A stretch of DNA of 64,000 nt from Pyrinomonadaceae bacterium. Its GTDB lineage: Bacteria; Acidobacteriota; Blastocatellia; Pyrinomonadales; Pyrinomonadaceae. Location of the stretch: NCBI GenBank assembly GCA_036009765.1, contig DASYLB010000044.1:6989-70988 (forward strand). Reading direction: 5' to 3'. A program made the translations under genes and the position numbers. Below the pieces are notes generated by a model. It was not told the DNA's origin, searched no databases, and worked only from the letters and a program-made list of their open reading frames with translations. Shown piece after piece: positions 2,618 through 64,000 of the stretch. The stretch's first letter is position 1; each line of letters starts with the position of its first letter.

Positions 2618-3413
2618 GGTCGCGGCGCTACGAGCCAGCGGAGCTGGCGGAAAGAGTGATAGCCACAGGTGAGGCGAAGCCGAGCCTGGGGAAGGGGCCC
2701 ACGGAGCACTCCGAGCCCACGAAGTGGGCGGCAGTTACACAATGCAAGAAAATTGGCTTCGAACAAATCAAGGGATTGTTGTCCTACTTCTTGACGAATC
2801 CTGGATGGGGTGTGCAAGGTCAACACTGATCTTCAATCTCATTCTTGGTGGTAATCAAAATGTCCTACACAAACCTTCTCTATCGTATTGTTTATGGAAC
2901 CAAGGGACGTGTTCCCCTGATCACTAGCGACCTGAAAAGTGACCTGCACGGCTATCTTAGTGGGATTGTTCGAGGACTAAACTGCGTTCCAATTGAGATT
3001 AACTGAATGGCCGAACATGTTCACCTATTAGTCAGGATTCGTCCCACGATCTCGGTGTCGGACTTTTTGAGCAAGCCAAAGTCCAGCTCTTCTCTTTGGG
3101 CAAAGAGAAAAACGAAACGACGGTTCGCATGTCAAGCAAAGTATGGGGCTTTCACTGTCAGTGAATCTCAAGTCGGCTGAGTTCGGCAATACATTCGCAA
3201 TCAGGAGATGCATCATCGAAAGATATCATTTGAGCAGGAGTTCGAAGCCCTTCTCAGCGGAAATCGAATGGACTTTGATCGACGGGTTCTCTGGGCCTAA
3301 GTTGAAGCTGCCGCCCACTTCGTGGGCTCAAATGTCTAATGGGCCTTCTCCTCAGGCTCGGCTGCGCCTCACCTGGGGCTATTACTCTCTTCGCCAGCTT
3401 TGCTGGCTCGTTG
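2618..3413 (+). mobile_element. REPtron-like unit: RAYT/IS200-type Y1 transposase gene remnant flanked by ~108-bp imperfect inverted repeats
   Basis: 2618-2725 is the reverse complement of 3306-3413 with few mismatches in a hand alignment. Both arms carry small internal palindromes. The Y1 HUH gene lies between them. Confidence 0.7.
2860..3300 (+). pseudogene. IS200/IS605-family Y1 (REP-associated tyrosine transposase-like) gene interrupted by two in-frame TGA codons
   Basis: Single frame reads MSYTNLLYRIVYGTKGRVPL...IEIN*MAEHVHLLVRIRP...YGAFTVSESQVG*VRQYIRNQEMHHRKISFEQEF. It contains the HUH motif (HVHLLV) and the catalytic-Tyr motif (YIxNQxxHH). Internal TGAs at 3004-3006 and 3178-3180. 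No frameshift. Confidence 0.75.
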
Positions 3414-6712: not shown

Positions 6713-7201
6713 TTAGTTGTTGGACGCGCGCGTATTCTTTATTGCGTCCAGCTCCGCAAGAAATTCATCCCGCTGGTGGGCCATCTCGGTTGCTCGCCTG
6801 GTCTTCTCGTTGACGTAACGCTCGCCTTTAAGGTCCGAGTCTTGAAGCGATTGAATCCAGGCCTTCAATTGTCTCGAACAGCTTTCTGACTTAAGTCTCG
6901 CCGGCTTAGTTTCTTCGACGAGGCTTTTGGCCCAAGGGAGTCGCTCAAGCAGGGTGAGCATCGAGCGAACTTCACCAGCGGAGCCGCGAGAAATGTAGAG
7001 GAACGTTAGTAGCTCGTTGTTGGTACCGCGCTCGAAACCTTCAGCAATATTGTTCGAGACTGAAACTGCTGCGCGCTCAATCTGATCCTTTACCGCGGGA
7101 TGCGGGACGCATTCGGGCTTCGCTGTGAGGGCGTAGATCGCGACGGCCAAGTCGATTGCGGTGTTCCAGACTGGAAGATCTTCGAAGCGTTTGTATTTCA
7201 T
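6713..7201 (-). CDS. Four-helix-bundle protein (23S rRNA intervening-sequence protein family)
   Basis: FEDLPVWNTAIDLAVAIY...NIAEGFERGTNNELLTFLYISRGSAGEVRSML is the family signature. Only 18 nt separate its stop from the permease start. Confidence 0.85.
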   Translation of the reverse strand: MKYKRFEDLPVWNTAIDLAVAIYALTAKPECVPHPAVKDQIERAAVSVSNNIAEGFERGTNNELLTFLYISRGSAGEVRSMLTLLERLPWAKSLVEETKPARLKSESCSRQLKAWIQSLQDSDLKGERYVNEKTRRATEMAHQRDEFLAELDAIKNTRASNN

Positions 7202-7222
7202 TGGGAGGCTCCAATCGGTCAG

Positions 7223-7391
7223 GATTTCAGATTCAAGATTCCAGATTGCAAATTCCAGATTCCAGAGTCAAGAACTAGAACTTTCTCAGTGAAAAATCGC
7301 AATGCAAAATCTCTGACAGCCGGCTGCAAATCTGATTCGACAATCGGATTTATTTGGACTCTGGAATTTGGATTCTTGAATCTTAAATTTC
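7223..7391. repeat. Long hairpin built from CCAGATT-type simple repeats (arms 7223-7269 and 7356-7391)
   Basis: ATTCAAGATTCCAGATTGCAAATTCCAGATTCCAGAGTC pairs with GACTCTGGAATTTGGATTCTTGAATCTTAAAT. It lies between the amine-oxidase stop and the four-helix-bundle start. Confidence 0.6.
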
Positions 7392-11223: not shown

Positions 11224-11669
11224 TTTAGCCCGGCCTTTCAAGGCCGGAAACAATAATTGACCCACGACCTCCGTCGCGTCGCGACGGAATGAAATTGCAG
11301 AGATCTAGTCTTCATTGCGTCGCTGACGCGACGCGTAGTTTAAGGAACGAGGTGATCCCAGCCTTGAAAGGGCAATGACATACTTGACGAATCAACCGAA
11401 TTCGCAACCCGAAGGGTTTGCTAGAAAGTAGCCGGGGGTCGAAGCGCAGCGCAGACCCCGGGAACCAATCGATCAAGGATTTGCACCCTGAAAGGGGTGC
11501 CAGCCCAACTCTGTGACCCTTCCAGGGTCAAATATGATTGCCTTCTGATCCGGGGGTGTCGCTCTGCTCGACCTCCGGCTACTATCTCGCAGCCCTACGG
11601 GCTGCCTCGGTCTTATCTCGGAGGGTGTACTTGATTCGTCAAGTATGTCATTGCCCTTGAAAGGCTGGG
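11224..11669. repeat. Nest of at least three short repeat families (family H PALKGRAK-type, an outer 39-bp inverted-repeat pair, and an inner family D element)
   Basis: TTAGCCCGGCCTTTCAAGGCCGG at 11226. Palindromes CCGTCGCGTCGCGACGG and GCGTCGCTGACGCGACGC. Outer IR 11357-11395 / 11631-11669. Inner family D element 11427-11583. Confidence 0.7.
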
Positions 11670-15064: not shown

Positions 15065-15192
15065 CTCAACTCCTTGGAGTGCGCCGACTTGTCGGCGCTT
15101 TGGTCTGATGTGGGTTATGGGACATGTCGATTGAAACTGCGCTGGGATCGCCGGCAAAAGCGCCGACAAGTCGGCGCACTCCAAGGAGTTGA
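15065..15192. repeat. Repeat family E, palindromic element in a divergent promoter region
   Basis: Arms CTCAACTCCTTGGAGTGCGCCGACTTGTCGGCGCTTT (15065-15101) and AAAGCGCCGACAAGTCGGCGCACTCCAAGGAGTTGA (about 15157-15192). Each arm also contains the palindrome GCGCCGAC-TT-GTCGGCGC. Confidence 0.7.
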
Positions 15193-25429: not shown

Positions 25430-25447
25430 CCCGAAAGATTAGTAGAA

Positions 25448-25526
25448 AGTAGCCGGTGGTCGAAGCGCAACCTAGACCACCGGCTAATATCCGCCAACCC
25501 TCCGGGGAAGACGCCAACCGGCTACT
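25448..25526. repeat. Repeat family D, short copy (AGTAGCCGGTGGTCGAAGCGC ... CCGGCTACT)
   Basis: The ends match the family D termini at 11427 and 61675. Confidence 0.55.
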
Positions 25527-25613
25527 GTCTCTCCAAAACTCCGCGGCATTCCCCATAATCCTCACCTGATCGCCAGTCAATAGATTAGAATCCCTCGGTC
25601 TCGACCCGATCCA

Positions 25614-27319: not shown

Positions 27320-27509
27320 TCTAACTTCCCTCCTGGGTTGGTCTATTTTTGGGGTAATTGAATTTTATGCAGGCAAGATTGCTGTGTCAACTGGACCAAA
27401 AAAGTCCAAGGTCCAAAGTCTAAGGTCCAAGCTAAGTTTTCCGAACGGTCGGTTAGGAATTCGGCGTCCTGAAGTTGAGCTTAAGACTGCGGATGGTGCG
27501 TCTGGTGTG

Positions 27510-59013: not shown

Positions 59014-60357
59014 TCATTTCGTATCACCGCTGCTGTAGAATCCTGCTTGCGCGTAAGCTTCGTCCAACAATTCCACGGGATGACAGACTGCTAGTTTCAT
59101 TCCTGCGAGCAGCGCGCCGGCTCCTATTTGCATTTGGCAGCCAGGATTTCCGGTGGCCAGAGTATTCGCGTGCGTCGCCTGAATGTTCGCAAGCTTTTCG
59201 GCGAGTACGCTCGCCGACAGATCCGGTTCGAGCAAGTTATAGATCCCGGCACCGCCACAACACCTCTCAGAACCTGCGAGCGGTACGAAACTAATCTTAG
59301 AAACGGCCGCCACTAATTTCAGCGGCGCTTCGCCCGCTCGCTGTCCGTAAAGCAAGTGACAAGATGAGTCGTAGGTTACGGTCTGCTCCATAGAGCTCGC
59401 GGCTTCCTTGATCTCAACAGACTCCAATTGTTGACTGACATCTCGCACGCGAGCGCTGAAGCAGCGCGCTCGTTCAGCAAATTCAGAGTCATCTCGGAGG
59501 AGATGTGCGTAAGAAACCAGCATCGCCCCACACCCGCCGGCGTTGGTGATGATCGGGTCGTCTTCGATCGTTGCGCCGGATTCAAACGCGGCGATATTTT
59601 TGCGCGCGAGTATGCACGCCCCTTCGAGATCGCCGGCGTGCGCATGCAGCGCTCCGCAGCAGACTTGTGCCGCGGGAGTCTGCACTGCAAAACCATTTAC
59701 TCTGAGCACACGCTCGGTCGCATCGTTCACGCGGGAGAAGAGTCCGGCGCCAACACAGCCGGTGAAGAGCATTGTGTTGCCGGTTCCGTTATTTCCGGCC
59801 CCGCGAAAGTCAACATTTGCTTTCCCGGGTGCGGGAGACGAGCTTTCGAGTAATGCGAGGCCGAACTGGAGTCGCCGGGAAAACAGTTTCGCAATTCCGG
59901 ACCTTCGCATCGCTCGAGCCAAGCCGCTGTCACGAATCAAACGCGACATCGCAAACAGAAACTTCAAACGCGCCGGATGTAACCAAACATGCTTCAGTAT
60001 CACTCGCAAAACGCGATAGCTGAACCCGCGTTTGTGGTCAGACTGAAACAGTTCACCGCGCGCAGCTTCCAGAAGTTCGCCATACTCGACGCCGGCGGGA
60101 CATACCTGCTCGCAGGCGCAGCAGCCGAGACAACGATCGATGTGGCGTTCGAACGACGGGGAATCGTTTGCCAACCGGCCCTCGCCGACGGCACGCATCA
60201 GATATAGCCGACCACGCGGTCCGTCGTTCTCATCGCCAGTGATTACGTAGGTGGGACAAGCCTCGAGACACAGGCCACAGTGGATGCACGCGAGTAGCTT
60301 CTCCTCTTCTCGCTGGAGTGTTGACGTCAGAGTCGTTGAGTTTTGTCTGCTCTGCAA
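59014..60357 (-). CDS. GlcF-like (Fe-S)-binding oxidoreductase subunit with two CCG domains
   Basis: Two 4Fe-4S ferredoxin motifs (CIHCGLCLEACPTY, CLGCCACEQVCPAGV) plus Cys-rich CCG repeats. TTG start at 60357; start uncertain. Confidence 0.75.
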   Translation of the reverse strand: MQSRQNSTTLTSTLQREEEKLLACIHCGLCLEACPTYVITGDENDGPRGRLYLMRAVGEGRLANDSPSFERHIDRCLGCCACEQVCPAGVEYGELLEAARGELFQSDHKRGFSYRVLRVILKHVWLHPARLKFLFAMSRLIRDSGLARAMRRSGIAKLFSRRLQFGLALLESSSPAPGKANVDFRGAGNNGTGNTMLFTGCVGAGLFSRVNDATERVLRVNGFAVQTPAAQVCCGALHAHAGDLEGACILARKNIAAFESGATIEDDPIITNAGGCGAMLVSYAHLLRDDSEFAERARCFSARVRDVSQQLESVEIKEAASSMEQTVTYDSSCHLLYGQRAGEAPLKLVAAVSKISFVPLAGSERCCGGAGIYNLLEPDLSASVLAEKLANIQATHANTLATGNPGCQMQIGAGALLAGMKLAVCHPVELLDEAYAQAGFYSSGDTK

Positions 60358-60641
60358 GATTAACCCGTCATTGCGCTTCGTTGAATTGGGAACCGATCAA
60401 GCAGGAGTATAACAGCCGAGCCGATGAGAATCGCTCCCAGTATCACTTTGCTGTCCTAACGTTGTGTGGCTAAGAATCCCGTCTAAGAAATCTTGCGAAG
60501 CAGGCACGGAACAGAGCAGTGGCTCGACAATAATGGAGGCCTTCAACTCGAACCATAGCGCCCCTCCATTACTGTCGGACGACGCGGCAACGCAGCTTTA
60601 GCGCACCGCAACCTAAGGCGGGTCACAAGCAGTCTGAAGAA

Positions 60642-61370
60642 TTAGGCCTGGGCTTGTTTGGCGGTTTCGCTTTGGGTGGCGGCGTAGACTTTTTTGCCGC
60701 CATAAAGACGTTGCCGGACCTTGTCCGGAAAACGGGTCTGGAAAACGAAATCCAGTATGCCGCTACTGGTGCCGAAGCCTCTTGTCATCCCCTGCGAGGT
60801 GTGATGATAGAGGTGATGCTTCTTCATGTAACGGAAGTAGGGATCCTTAAAATTGGAGAAGTGGGTTGCGTGATGAATCCACTCTTCGGCGATATAGGAT
60901 TGGAACGCAAAGGCAACCACAATCGAGGCGGTGTAGGGTGGAAAGAGCAAAATGCTTAGCGGCACACCAGTCAGGAAGAGCGGTAACAGATCGCGCACGC
61001 GTCCGCTCATGTGATCGCCGTCAAATGGTTTCTCGTGATGGCCGAAATGCGTTGGGTCGAGATACTTGTTCGCCAGAATGGAAAAGGGGCGCTTGAAGCG
61101 TCGCTGCGACACCTTCCAGTGGCGGTGCAAAATGAAGCGATGCGAAAAATATTCCGTCAACATCCAAAACAGTATGCCGCCGGGAATGAATGCGATCGCG
61201 CGCAACAGGTGACCTGAGCGATAGGCGAAGAGCATCAGGATCAGTGAATAAGTCGTATAGAAAGCGGTGGTCTTGTAGATTTTGCGCCGGGAGATGACTT
61301 CCTGCGCACGCTTGTACACGCGATAGGGGTGTTCCTTGCGCCTTCTATTAAGGGGTAGATCAGGGGTCAT
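60642..61370 (-). CDS. Fatty acid hydroxylase / sterol desaturase superfamily membrane protein
   Basis: Histidine boxes HRFILHRH, HFGHHEKP and HHLYHH, plus TM helices. Confidence 0.8.
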   Translation of the reverse strand: MTPDLPLNRRRKEHPYRVYKRAQEVISRRKIYKTTAFYTTYSLILMLFAYRSGHLLRAIAFIPGGILFWMLTEYFSHRFILHRHWKVSQRRFKRPFSILANKYLDPTHFGHHEKPFDGDHMSGRVRDLLPLFLTGVPLSILLFPPYTASIVVAFAFQSYIAEEWIHHATHFSNFKDPYFRYMKKHHLYHHTSQGMTRGFGTSSGILDFVFQTRFPDKVRQRLYGGKKVYAATQSETAKQAQA

Positions 61371-61547
61371 TCAGGCACTAACCTCGATTGATTTGATGAT
61401 TGCTAACAGTCGGAGATTCTGGCTGAAGTTGGTTTAACTAGTCAATAGCTGACGCGATCGTCATTCAAGTTTTTGCCGGTAAGCCCTTACTGCGGCGCGC
61501 AGGTTCTCTTTGCCGTGCACGATAAAGCGGTTTGTTATCATTCGCTT

Positions 61548-61676
61548 ATGGACTGCAAAATCATTACGATTGAACCTGGCAAGCGCAGCGGCAAGCCGTG
61601 CATTCGAGGAATACGTATTACAGTCACTGTCGTGCCCGTTTCATTAAACGAGGCAGCCCGAAGGGTTGCGAGATAG
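61548..61676 (+). pseudogene. DUF433 (antitoxin-like) gene remnant, 3'-truncated
   Basis: MDCKIITIEPGKRSGKPCIRGIRITV matches the DUF433 core (GKPxIxGTRI). The reading frame then degenerates and stops where the family D repeat begins. Confidence 0.5.
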
Positions 61677-61759
61677 TAGCCGGGGGTTGAGCGTAGCGAT
61701 ACCCCCGCAGCAGCAGGCAATTGTATTTTGACCCTGAAAGGGTCACAGAGTTAGCCCGG
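61675..61759. repeat. Repeat family D, half copy
   Basis: AGTAGCCGGGGGTTGAGCGTAGCGATACCCCCG...TTTGACCCTGAAAGGGTCACAGAGTTAGCCCGG is homologous to the reverse complement of 11500-11590. The partner arm is missing. Confidence 0.6.
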
Positions 61760-61775
61760 TCGTTGAGTGGTAAAG

Positions 61776-61995
61776 AGTAGCCGACTACTTCTTGCTACTC
61801 AACGACTAGTGTTTAGGACTAGACGAGTAGTGTTCCCGGGTAGCTGACCAGTGTTGAGGACTAGACGACTAGGCTTCATGACTAGCCGACTATTGTTCAT
61901 CACTCAAAGACTATTGTTTATCATTAGACGACTAGTAATGAGGACGACACCATTTGGGTTCATGACTAGCTGACTAGTGTTAACAACTAGACGTC
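61776..61995. repeat. Tandem array of ten full 21-bp units plus one partial unit, consensus ACTAGMCGACTAGTGTTCATG
   Basis: Units start at 61776, 61797, 61818, 61839, 61860, 61881, 61902, 61923, 61944, 61965 and 61986 with no phase slip. Confidence 0.85.
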
Positions 61996-62175
61996 CCCCT
62001 GGCAGGCCCTTAAGAACTGTACTCGGCCGTGATACATACCTTTGGCCTGGATAACTCAAAATCCCATCTGATGCTTCCGTGACAAACCGGGGGTTATTCT
62101 TTGGAGTGAACATTGATCACTGCTGTGAAGAAGGTGACTTTCACTGGTAGGTTCTCTTCGAAGCAACTCAGGACC

Positions 62176-63942
62176 TCAGTAGCCAACAGCAACGCCATCG
62201 CTGCGCCGCGGATCCGTTGCGCCTAGTCGCATGCCCGTTTTCTCTTCGATCATAATTCCTTCGGCATCTCCAAGATACCGCGGTCTCGCTAGCTTGTGGC
62301 CCAGTGACGTCAGCGCTTTCTGCGTATCGCCGGAAAGTCCATAAGGCTCAAATACCAATTCATCCGGCAGCCACTGATGATGAATGCGCGGAAAATCGAG
62401 TGCCTGTTGGATGTCCATGCCGTAGTCGACCACGTTGACGATTACGCAGAGCGCTGTGTTGATAATCGTCGGACCGCCCGGACTGCCAACCGTAAACCAG
62501 AGACTGCCGTCCTTGCGCAAAACGAAAGTGGGTGTCATCGCCGAGAGCGGACGTTTATGCGGCGCCACCGCATTGCGCTCGCCCTGAATTAGGCCATACA
62601 TGTTCGCGGTTCCCGGCTTGGCTGCGAAGTCGTCCATCTCATCGTTGAGAATTATTCCGGTACCCTTCGCCACCGCCGCGGAGCCGTATGAGTTATTGAG
62701 TGTGTAGGTGTTCGCGACCGCGTTGCCTTCGGCGTCGACGACAGTAAAGTGTGTGGTCTCCTCAGATTCATGGCCGACTGGTTGACCGGCGCTAATCTCG
62801 ACGCTGGTCGACGCTCTTTCAGTGCTAATCGACCCGCGAAGTTTTGCCGCGTAAGCCTTATCGATCAGACCAGCAATTGGCACTTTGACGAAATCGGTGT
62901 CGCCCATAAACTCGGCGCGATCGGCAAACGCTCGTCGCATTGCTTCTGTCATCAAGTGGTAGCGCTCTGACGATGCCGCATCAAATTTACTTAAGTCATA
63001 ACCTTCAAGAATGTTCAGCATCTCGATCAGTACGGCGCCGCCTGATGAAGGTGGGGGCATCGAGACAACTTCAAAGCCACGATACTTTGCGCGCACGGGG
63101 TCGCGTTCCTTAGCGACATAGCCGCGCATGTCCGCCAACGTCATCAGGCCATTATGATGCTGAATATCGTCGACAATCATCCGCGCCGTCAGTCCTTCAT
63201 AAAACTCATTCGGACCGAGACTTTGTAACCGCGCAAAGGTCGCCGCCAGATCCGGCTGACGAAGTAGATCGCCTTCGTTGTAAAACTTTCCGCTGTTTAG
63301 ATAAATACGTTTTGTTTCTGCATACTGCGACAGGTAATCGTTGTTGCCGCGCAGCGAACGCGCGAGCTCATAGGTGACGGTGAAACCATTGGCGAGTCGA
63401 CGCGCAGGCTCAACGAGTTGCGACCAGGTTAGTTTTCCCGATCCATATTTTTTGAGGGCCAGCTCCATGCCGCGCACCGTTCCCGGTACGCCCGCGGCGC
63501 GATAACCCACCAGCGATCCGCCTTCGCCTTCAATTAGTTTTCCGCTCTTGTCCAGATAGACGTCGTGCGTTGCCGCCGCCGGCGCCATCTCGCGATAGTC
63601 AATCGCCGTCGTTTTTCCATTCTTGAGGCGAATCATCATGAAGCCGCCACCGCCGAGATTGCCGGCAGCCGGGTGGGTCACTGCCAATGCAAACGCAACG
63701 GCGATCGCGGCGTCGATCGCATTGCCGCCACGTTTCATGATGTCCACGCCAACTCGCGAGGCTACCTCGTTCGTAGAGGCGACCATGCCGTGCCGCGCCC
63801 GCACCGGGTCACGCGATGCGGCGATTGCTGTGACCGGTGCTGCTTGGCGAAAGATTTCTAAATTGGGAATGCCGAGCAAGGCGGCGGTAATCGCAGTCAC
63901 CAAAAACAGGCGCAGGGCAGTCTGTAGAGTTCTGTTTCTCAT
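62176..63942 (-). CDS. ggt: Gamma-glutamyltranspeptidase
   Basis: Signal peptide. GGNAIDAA, the autoprocessing/nucleophile site ETTHFTVVD, and GSPGGPTII. Confidence 0.92.
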   Translation of the reverse strand: MRNRTLQTALRLFLVTAITAALLGIPNLEIFRQAAPVTAIAASRDPVRARHGMVASTNEVASRVGVDIMKRGGNAIDAAIAVAFALAVTHPAAGNLGGGGFMMIRLKNGKTTAIDYREMAPAAATHDVYLDKSGKLIEGEGGSLVGYRAAGVPGTVRGMELALKKYGSGKLTWSQLVEPARRLANGFTVTYELARSLRGNNDYLSQYAETKRIYLNSGKFYNEGDLLRQPDLAATFARLQSLGPNEFYEGLTARMIVDDIQHHNGLMTLADMRGYVAKERDPVRAKYRGFEVVSMPPPSSGGAVLIEMLNILEGYDLSKFDAASSERYHLMTEAMRRAFADRAEFMGDTDFVKVPIAGLIDKAYAAKLRGSISTERASTSVEISAGQPVGHESEETTHFTVVDAEGNAVANTYTLNNSYGSAAVAKGTGIILNDEMDDFAAKPGTANMYGLIQGERNAVAPHKRPLSAMTPTFVLRKDGSLWFTVGSPGGPTIINTALCVIVNVVDYGMDIQQALDFPRIHHQWLPDELVFEPYGLSGDTQKALTSLGHKLARPRYLGDAEGIMIEEKTGMRLGATDPRRSDGVAVGY

Positions 63943-64000
63943 AGTAGTTCTCAGTAGGCAGGCAGTGACGGGTGTGCCTTAAAGTCGTTTGTCGATAGCA

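Follow-up and report, generated by a model that had tools for sequence, protein, structure and literature searches.

Introduction

BrickBuilt of Porphyromonas gingivalis (Klein et al. 2015, PMC4596501) is the closest known counterpart of the element described here, an array of ten direct 21-bp units on the plus strand (61776-61985) of a 64,000-nucleotide stretch of DNA from a Pyrinomonadaceae bacterium (contig DASYLB010000044.1). This whole stretch is called the window. It is part of a contig, 91.6 kb long, that was assembled from a JGI soil metagenome, and one sequencing run contains the window sequence. BrickBuilt and the array are both spacer-less tandem arrays whose imperfect units span roughly two turns of the helix, 23 nt in BrickBuilt and 21 nt here. 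Both are intergenic, combine conserved and non-conserved unit positions, vary widely in unit number between copies, have flanking segments of the MITE type (miniature transposable elements with inverted repeats) and carry open reading frames (ORFs) called by annotation pipelines without sign of expression (PMC4596501). BrickBuilt is present with 19 copies per genome, has a leader and a tail with inverted-repeat ends and has shown promoter activity (PMC4596501). Unlike BrickBuilt, the array was seen with about two abundant copies in the source sample, and its copies have only the left neighbour in common, consisting of a hairpin and the outer arm of a repeat element termed family D; no common tail was found. 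Its units are also far more diverged, differing by 24% from their consensus compared with 0-11% mismatches in BrickBuilt (PMC4596501).

Next closest are clusters of repetitive extragenic palindromic (REP) sequences, bacterial interspersed mosaic elements (BIMEs) and REP doublets forming hairpins (REPINs), which are likewise extragenic, often located between convergent genes and arranged in tandem clusters (Di Nocera et al. 2013, PMC3733652; Bertels and Rainey 2011, PMC3116915). GTAG-tagged palindromic REPs are mobilised by REP-associated tyrosine transposases (RAYTs; PMC3733652; PMC3116915), and REP units with a short stem of 5 bp are known from Thauera, where they were found via a tandem-repeat database (PMC3733652). 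The family D element beside the array is a typical REP doublet of GTAG plus palindrome. The array itself differs from REP clusters in having CTAG instead of an unpaired GTAG tag and 5-bp arms that have mostly decayed, and the scanned ORFs of the window included no RAYT gene. The Pfam scan covered 35 longer ORFs between 1 and 39.6 kb, three further ORFs and a DUF433 remnant beside the array, complemented by precomputed families for 55-64 kb and for 5.6 kb beyond the window. The head-to-tail order of the array is rare in REP families.

Type II partition centromeres and plasmid iterons, such as parC of R1 and pSK41 and the iterons of R6K and pPS10, consist of about ten direct repeats of 11-22 bp, helix-phased over about 200 bp and each the size of a dimer site. 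The array resembles them in repeat number, helical phasing and a dimer-sized unit. They are well conserved and adjoin parR/parM or a rep gene on plasmids or phages, whereas the array is chromosomal, without such a gene among the scanned ORFs, and has mostly decayed sites, neutral substitutions and a variable unit number. Heptamer arrays of the short tandemly repeated repetitive (STRR) or TAACTGA type, found in cyanobacteria, Beggiatoaceae and Bacteroidetes, are intergenic direct repeats like the array (MacGregor 2015, PMC4679880), and the window also has heptamer arrays. The TAACTGA-type repeats occur in scattered phyla and are of unknown origin; horizontal spread or a common generating process was suggested (PMC4679880). 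The array is unlike them in its period of 21 with an 8+13 substructure, and in being long and old and not a short run close to a start codon.

We hold, with moderate confidence, that the array is an old, decaying and hypervariable chromosomal minisatellite that is carried with REP/MITE DNA, changes by gain and loss of units and was duplicated as a block together with a hairpin and the adjoining end of family D.

Structure of the array

Tandem Repeats Finder (TRF) called the array at 61802-61993 with a period of 21, 9.1 copies, 0% indels and a score of 111. Neighbouring copies of the unit showed 61% matches, and TRF detected no second long-period array in the 64-kb window. Phased from 61776, the array comprised ten full units and a partial eleventh, ACTAGACGTCCCCC (61986-61999, plus strand), which ends where the similarity to a copy from another study stops. 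The phasing given in a first-pass annotation of the window, strictly 21 bp with ten units and a partial one, was thus confirmed by the TRF call, the unit table and the same unit order in three related contigs (L010-L012). The consensus of the units was ACTAGACGACTAGTGTTCATG. Individual units were identical to it at 12-19 of 21 positions (57-90%), with a mean of 76%. A 17-nt core occurred six times in the window with at most three mismatches, every time within the array, compared with 0.06 occurrences in shuffled sequences. A separate assembly of the source run (Logan contig, 852 nt) was identical to the window over 61678-62300. As this independent assembly agrees over the whole array, the array is not an assembly artefact.

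The ideal unit consists of a 14-bp dyad (ACTAG-ACGA-CTAGT) and a 7-bp spacer. Because CTAG is palindromic, the motif ACTAG-N3-ACTAGT is at the same time an inverted repeat, ACTAG / ACGA / CTAGT. The direct half-repeat ACTAG-N3-ACTAG had been attributed to every unit in the first-pass annotation. Both exact half-sites were present in two of the ten full units (61860 and 61965), where they can equally be read as a dyad; the remaining units were degenerate. Perfect dyad arms were restricted to units 1 and 10. The best-kept columns of the array were core columns 8-13 (GACTAG), and the array contained nine CTAG. CTAG was the most under-represented tetranucleotide of the window, with 52 occurrences compared with 246 expected from base composition (observed/expected 0.21) and 92 expected from a Markov model. 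The next most avoided tetranucleotides were TATA, TAGG and CCTA.

With head-to-tail units, a period of 21, 9.1-10.5 copies and 0% indels, the array has the form of a minisatellite or VNTR locus (tandem repeats in variable number), a class with units of about 10-100 bp. The units are contiguous at period 21 and have no spacers, so that the array is not a clustered regularly interspaced short palindromic repeat (CRISPR) locus, as had been concluded before. TRF found the period of 21 only, with the 8+13 substructure, and no 7-bp sub-period, which sets the array apart from the heptamer STRR/TAACTGA type. It also differs from units of REP or BIME elements, because its CTAG lies inside the 5-bp arms and no unpaired tag is present. 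REP or BIME units consist of an unpaired GTAG (or CGTC) tag and a palindrome with a 5-13 bp stem, a description that the adjacent family D element fits.

Related copies

Other copies of the array were detected by placing contigs of public soil runs on the window. A second copy was present in the source run X1 with a depth of 69.6, compared with 64.6 for the contig of the window, which corresponds to about two abundant copies in this run. Two further soil studies (run X3; runs X4-X7) also contained copies. One copy was recovered as DNA in the Logan contigs L010-L012, originating from three runs of one soil study, and its locus carries an NlpC/P60 gene and a DUF6897 gene. Between L011 and the window, the unit order was identical, with 28 substitutions and no gap over 249 nt (61751-61999), a difference of 11%. 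The presence of diverged units in the same order in both copies shows that the array was copied as a block after its units had diverged. With units about 24% off their consensus and 11% difference between the two copies, the array is old and not a fresh product of slippage, in agreement with the first-pass annotation.

Contigs from four runs of one study matched the window up to 61999 and continued into unrelated sequence, CGAGCACGCTGCTG. Length differences relative to the window amounted to 63, 84 (72+12), 105 (83+22) and 147 (134+13) bp, all of them exact multiples of 21. At the second locus, which has a junction with a family A element, the array was longer by 84 bp in run X1 and by 63 bp in run X4. 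L011 showed a higher-order period of 84 bp. The related copies thus differ in length by whole units, as expected of a minisatellite or VNTR. Length variation between otherwise identical strains, or membership in a larger element, had been named in advance as grounds for regarding the array as a plain minisatellite or as part of such an element. Whole-unit differences and a larger repeat context were found, the differences being between related copies and not between strains at the locus of the window.

The substitutions between the copies are neutrally distributed. Of the 28 positions at which the window and L011 differ, 25 were scored against the consensus: L011 had the consensus base in 13, the window in 11 and neither in one. 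Twelve of these 25 fell into the 11 core columns (ACTAG and GACTAG), compared with 52% expected. The ACTAG half-sites showed no sign of protection since the copies split.

The right flanks of the three loci were unlike one another. In the window, unique sequence leads up to ggt. A family A MITE interrupts the second copy near 61945-61952. L011 has, directly to the right of its array, a palindromic MITE that is related to window 15066-15192, and then the NlpC/P60 gene about 420 nt downstream. Comparison of these three flanks revealed no common tail segment, and the flank sequences of the other array copies had no further occurrence in the window. The palindromic MITE family at 15066-15192 reads TTGGAGTGCG...CGCACTCCAA and has perfectly complementary arms of 36 nt in the window.

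Left junction

The array is preceded by half a family D element (61649-61759, plus strand), identified by inverted matches of 93 nt and 33 nt to a full copy at 11357-11669. A REP palindrome with a GTAG tag (GTAGCCGGGGGTTGAGCGTAGCGATACCCCCG), a small hairpin (GACCCTGAAAGGGTC) and the centre of the element make up this half, which truncates the DUF433 ORF and borders immediately on the array; the family D alignment extends to CACAGAGTT. An inverted array unit is located at 61755-61775 (minus strand), with the reverse complement CTTTACCACTCAACGACCGGG resembling ACTCAACGAC, and GTCGTTGAGT (61760-61769) is the exact reverse complement of ACTCAACGAC at 61797-61806.

At this junction, a head-to-head hairpin of 50 nt (61758-61807, plus strand) was found by DNA folding in comparison with shuffled sequences. 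Its stem has about 20-22 pairs, with the inverted unit as 5' arm pairing with unit 2, and unit 1 forms the apex, AGTAG CCGA CTACT. The DNA fold had -14.5 kcal/mol (z = -5.5) in the window and -17.1 kcal/mol (z = -5.9) in L011, with 0 of 200 shuffles as good. The right end of the array had no significant hairpin (z = -0.4). The 5' arm and the apex (61758-61791) were unchanged in five spanning contigs, and one short contig of low depth showed eight differences within 61762-61806. Four substitutions were observed within the 3' arm, namely 61792 T>C, 61794 G>A, 61795 C>T and 61796 T>C, and each exchanged one permissible base pair for another. The hairpin looks conserved and is the only part of the block with any sign of constraint.

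Family D was represented in the window by three copies, at 11357-11669, 25436-25530 and 61649-61759. With its GTAG tag and palindrome it is a REP doublet, AAAGTAGCCGGGGGTC...GACCCCGG plus the inverse. The full copy is nested in a larger element with 39-nt outer arms that are 95% complementary (CCCAGCCTTGAAAGGGCAATGACATACTTGACGAATCAA). Family D sequence abuts the array in the three copies with a readable left flank. The part of family D that borders on the array in L011 and in the second copy of X1 is the outer arm, where GTTGATGCGTCAAGTTGTTATTGCAGATTTTAGCCTGG resembles the reverse complement of 11357-11400. The proposal of the first-pass annotation that the array had grown from a family D end is supported in part: the physical junction is present in these three copies and such an origin is possible, while the 8-nt match AGTAGCCG to the REP tag is, taken alone, within chance for sequences of this length.

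Position 61751 was considered as an element boundary and rejected. It is the window's own breakpoint, since the other copies share further flank with each other, and the array proper begins at 61760. An insertion of the array into the middle of family D was also rejected, because the right flank could not be aligned to family D and the scores of 22-26 represent noise. No target-site duplications or terminal inverted repeats were seen when the junctions of the window and L011 were compared by eye.

Origin of the array

As a minisatellite, the array would have started with a CTAG-rich 21-bp unit that was amplified long ago and whose copies diverged afterwards. The block and the adjacent family D end would then have been duplicated to at least one other locus, and it would persist in related uncultured soil bacteria. 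Changes in length were observed in multiples of 21; slipped-strand mispairing or unequal recombination between units may have caused the gain and loss of units. The hairpin and the neighbouring REP/MITE DNA would explain how the block moves or is copied, either by recombination among the surrounding repeats or by the single-strand hairpin route of REP elements. The array itself would be a passenger. We infer both this mechanism of duplication and the lack of a function of the array itself.

Several observations weigh against this explanation. Conservation within the array was somewhat higher in the core columns than in the spacer columns, a marginal difference (chi-square p = 0.065), which would fit weak selection on a motif. 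Nine of the 52 CTAG of the window lie within the 249 bp of the block although the word is otherwise avoided, which is odd for purely neutral sequence. An array in a cyanobacterium (contig L002) shares the ACTAGACGACTAG core, the 21-bp period and a number of 10.5 units, and this could mean a shared function. On the side of transcription, none of the RNA sequencing runs contained the array sequence. Finally, the array would be fast-changing judging only by the contrast between a near-identical left end and units diverged by 13%.

The minisatellite explanation removes a tempting and unsupported call of a chromosomal iteron or centromere. It adds a documented case of a minisatellite that is carried along with REP/MITE DNA, from an uncultured soil lineage for which descriptions of such elements are scarce. 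If confirmed, the conserved hairpin, situated where the array joins a GTAG-tagged REP, may offer a way into the birth of tandem arrays from REP-type elements, or on their movement with them. The locus would also serve as a length-polymorphic marker for strain tracking in soil metagenomes.

Genomic setting and protein docking

The array lies in a convergent gap with a truncated DUF433 ORF on one side and ggt, on the minus strand, on the other, as described in the first-pass annotation. The DUF433 ORF matches positions 1-24 of the 56 positions of the Pfam profile. Families at 1-39.6 kb and in the four further ORFs were metabolic, transport and regulatory only, including Mur ligase, amino-acid permease, amylases, peptidases, a LysR regulator, a MurQ-type protein and similar. 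At 55-64 kb and in the 5.6 kb that follow the window, the precomputed families were ggt, fatty-acid hydroxylase, a CCG-domain protein and others. No rep, par, partition, integrase or transposase gene was present among the ORFs scanned. Just right of the array, at 62088-62157, 68 nt are missing from a low-depth contig of a different soil run (X2) that matches the region downstream of ggt, and 13 other letters stand in their place; this is an indel polymorphism in a relative.

When the array and a synthetic consensus were compared by blastn with 72,556 plasmids and 50,697 phages, nothing but a 27-nt chance match in otsA was obtained. A scan of viral contigs with a looser pattern gave two chance matches only, both inside genes, and a full-text literature search for the 13-mer core retrieved no paper. 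The array is chromosomal. It lacks the features of an iteron array, as no Rep initiator gene was found among the scanned ORFs and no plasmid or phage matched. Its units, 57-90% identical to the consensus and with both half-sites in two of ten, are also not conserved as iterons are, and the substitutions did not spare the core. Likewise, no partition operon was located beside the array of the window or in L010-L012, where the neighbours were NlpC/P60 and DUF6897 genes, as would be expected of parC or parS. The flanks of L002 were also without a partition gene; there, only a DUF429 gene was Pfam-checked, and the small ORF at the opposite flank looks NdhS-like by eye. Overall, the array lacks the defining features of iterons, partition centromeres, CRISPR, REP units and heptamer STRRs and has those of minisatellites. 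The identification as an iteron or parC/parS-type array, put forward in the first-pass annotation, is not supported: half-sites are mostly decayed and unprotected, rep and par genes were absent from the ORFs scanned and plasmid or phage matches were lacking. Any protein binding would be incidental or putative.

A protein-docking role is possible on the basis of the unit sequence, and we consider it unlikely. Here the 14-bp dyad would have the size for dimeric helix-turn-helix or ribbon-helix-helix proteins, and ten sites at two helical turns would place the dimers on one face of the DNA, similar to ParR-parC, omega or iterons, or would form a chromosomal organising or sequestering site. The exact 21-bp phasing without indels fits this idea, as does the strong local excess of the otherwise avoided CTAG. 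GACTAG (columns 8-13) was best kept in the array of the window and, counted by eye, also in the cyanobacterial array. The spacing CTAG-N4-CTAG is presumably that of the trp operator, and AGACGACT would be one base off the met box. An unrelated contig, L005, carries ACTAG-N3-ACTAG between two divergent small ORFs, which were assigned to the XRE type by eye only; it was a chance match of the pattern. Both half-sites were retained in only two of the ten units, however, core and spacer were substituted equally, and changes toward and away from the consensus were balanced. The unit number differs between copies, and no DNA-binding, par or rep gene was found nearby in any locus among the ORFs scanned. 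Gene placement also differs, being a convergent gap in the window, about 420 nt upstream of NlpC/P60 in L011 and a divergent gap in L002, and no similar sequence was found among the plasmids and phages searched.

The gap in L005 (720-780, JAAGKN010000689.1) holds four ACTAG, including ACTAG-CTG-ACTAG, in a short distance between the divergent ORFs, XRE-type by eye. From its sequence, it looks like an operator built on the ACTAG half-site.

Possible transposition by a terminal hairpin

In another explanation, the block would be non-autonomous and mobile, transferred in single-stranded form by a hairpin-recognising tyrosine (Y1/HUH) transposase of the RAYT or IS200/IS605 type. Recognition would take place at the terminal hairpin, and the array would be internal cargo or a by-product of aberrant processing of the REP tag. 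We regard this as improbable. The significance of the hairpin, the compatibility of each observed change with pairing and the lack of target-site duplications or terminal inverted repeats at the junctions, as judged by eye, are in its favour. In every copy with a readable left flank (n=3), the block adjoins a GTAG-tagged REP element. The apex, AGTAGCCGACTACT, is one base off two head-to-head REP tags, AGTAGCCGG/CCGGCTACT, and REP arrays were proposed to stem from alternative processing by RAYTs (PMC3733652). Against it, the window ORFs scanned comprised neither a RAYT nor an IS200-type gene, nor any other for a transposase, and the significant hairpin of the left end has no counterpart at the right end. 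The apparent left boundary at 61751 is the breakpoint of the window and does not mark the end of an element. The block seems to have few copies, given about two abundant ones in the source run, and the 8-nt match to the REP tag is of a length that occurs by chance.

Look-alike arrays in other phyla

Species-representative genomes (596 Gb) and metagenome contigs were scanned for the pattern ACTAGNNGACTAGNNTTNNNNACTAG. The single match in the species-representative genomes was the contig L002 of Cyanobacteriota bacterium JS3 (JAVYJL010000001.1). At 2914-3133, it contains a genuine intergenic array of 10.5 units with a period of 21 bp, the consensus ACTAGACGACTAGGTTCAAAG and stops in all frames. 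This array is located between the DUF429 gene and the small NdhS-like ORF, and unit variants like those of the window were present (ACTCAA..., ATTAGA...). Of the 22 CTAG of the 8-kb locus, 11 were inside the array, and a hairpin-rich repeat follows it. The locus is dense in tandem arrays, with 26 TRF rows in 8 kb. No sequencing run containing the cyanobacterial array was found.

The cyanobacterial array was rejected as proof of homology, because 13 positions per unit are fixed by the pattern and three to four of the eight free positions agree compared with two expected, which is not significant. The similarity may have arisen by chance or convergence, as repeat-rich cyanobacterial genomes hold many 21-bp arrays, and we regard convergence or a common generating process as no less likely than homology. 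Five metagenome contigs matched the pattern (L003-L007). L003 had 2.3 units in DNA without an ORF over 117 aa and is probably unrelated, and L004-L007 were chance matches without arrays.

A more far-reaching interpretation is that arrays of CTAG-N4-CTAG at exactly 21 bp, shared by a soil bacterium and a cyanobacterium with the same core and about 10.5 units, are chromosomal docking arrays across phyla in which one helix face would be coated by a conserved dimeric protein. We consider this very doubtful. If true, the arrays would serve nucleoid organisation, segregation or the control of repeat elements, and CTAG would be kept rare elsewhere so that they stand out. More generally, 21-bp ACTAG-based arrays in unrelated phyla would, if confirmed, point to a common generating process or binding factor.

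Transcription and coding potential

Searches against Rfam gave no match at E <= 1 for either strand of 60000-64000, and no promoter-like or terminator-like site touched the array. We consider it highly unlikely that the array is transcribed and acts as an RNA, in which a leader or untranslated region would form a long stem-loop and about ten short ACUAG/CUAGU hairpins and would work as a stabiliser, an insulator or a sponge for an RNA-binding protein. The plus strand folded better than shuffled sequences (z = -3.25), the G-U pairs of the hairpin make sense on this strand only, and in L011 the array lies on the same strand as the NlpC/P60 gene about 420 nt downstream. Most of this z-score was supplied by the single terminal hairpin, though, and in the window the next gene downstream is convergent. 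RNA runs with the sequence were also missing, as noted above.

All six frames contain stops over the array. The least-interrupted frame of each strand is broken by just two TGA within units, and these two frames are nearly open because only they avoid the TAG inside CTAG. When the window was compared with L011, the minus frame had 5 synonymous and 20 non-synonymous codon changes and the plus frame 3 and 17, as expected of non-coding DNA. The array is non-coding, and the earlier statement to this effect, which was based on stops in every frame, holds with the specification that one frame per strand has only these two TGA.

At the protein level, the array was translated in the two least-interrupted frames with TGA read through, to catch ORFs annotated over other copies. 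Two word-indexed protein searches with the translated array yielded no match. HMMER against 1.84 billion representative proteins detected one close relative, P0003, a 114-aa ORF, and 14 weaker matches that were unrelated low-complexity proteins with heptad repeats. P0003 extends across another copy of the array, in which the minus frame is open, and led to the contigs L010-L012. Its residues 1-47 derive from non-array DNA right of that copy, and given this N-terminus we take P0003 to be a spurious ORF. A remnant of a protein-coding heptad repeat (21 bp being seven codons, for example SRLVLNT on the minus strand and TRRLVFM on the plus strand) is hardly credible in spite of the one frame per strand with only two TGA and the minus frame annotated as an ORF in another copy, because non-synonymous changes exceeded synonymous ones by 20:5 and 17:3 and the only close relative found begins in flanking DNA.

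Other repeats in the window

Short arrays of the heptamer type were present at 7219-7273, 7352-7390 and 27401-27431 of the window. The heptamer (C/A)AGATTC occurred about six times and had its inverted counterpart at a distance of 80 nt within one intergenic gap, and GTCCAAG occurred four times. STRR-like heptamer repeats are better known from cyanobacteria. A free-standing ORF at 6713-7201 (minus strand), which adjoins the gap with the heptamer repeats, belongs to the family of 23S rRNA intervening-sequence proteins (PF05635, E = 4e-24).

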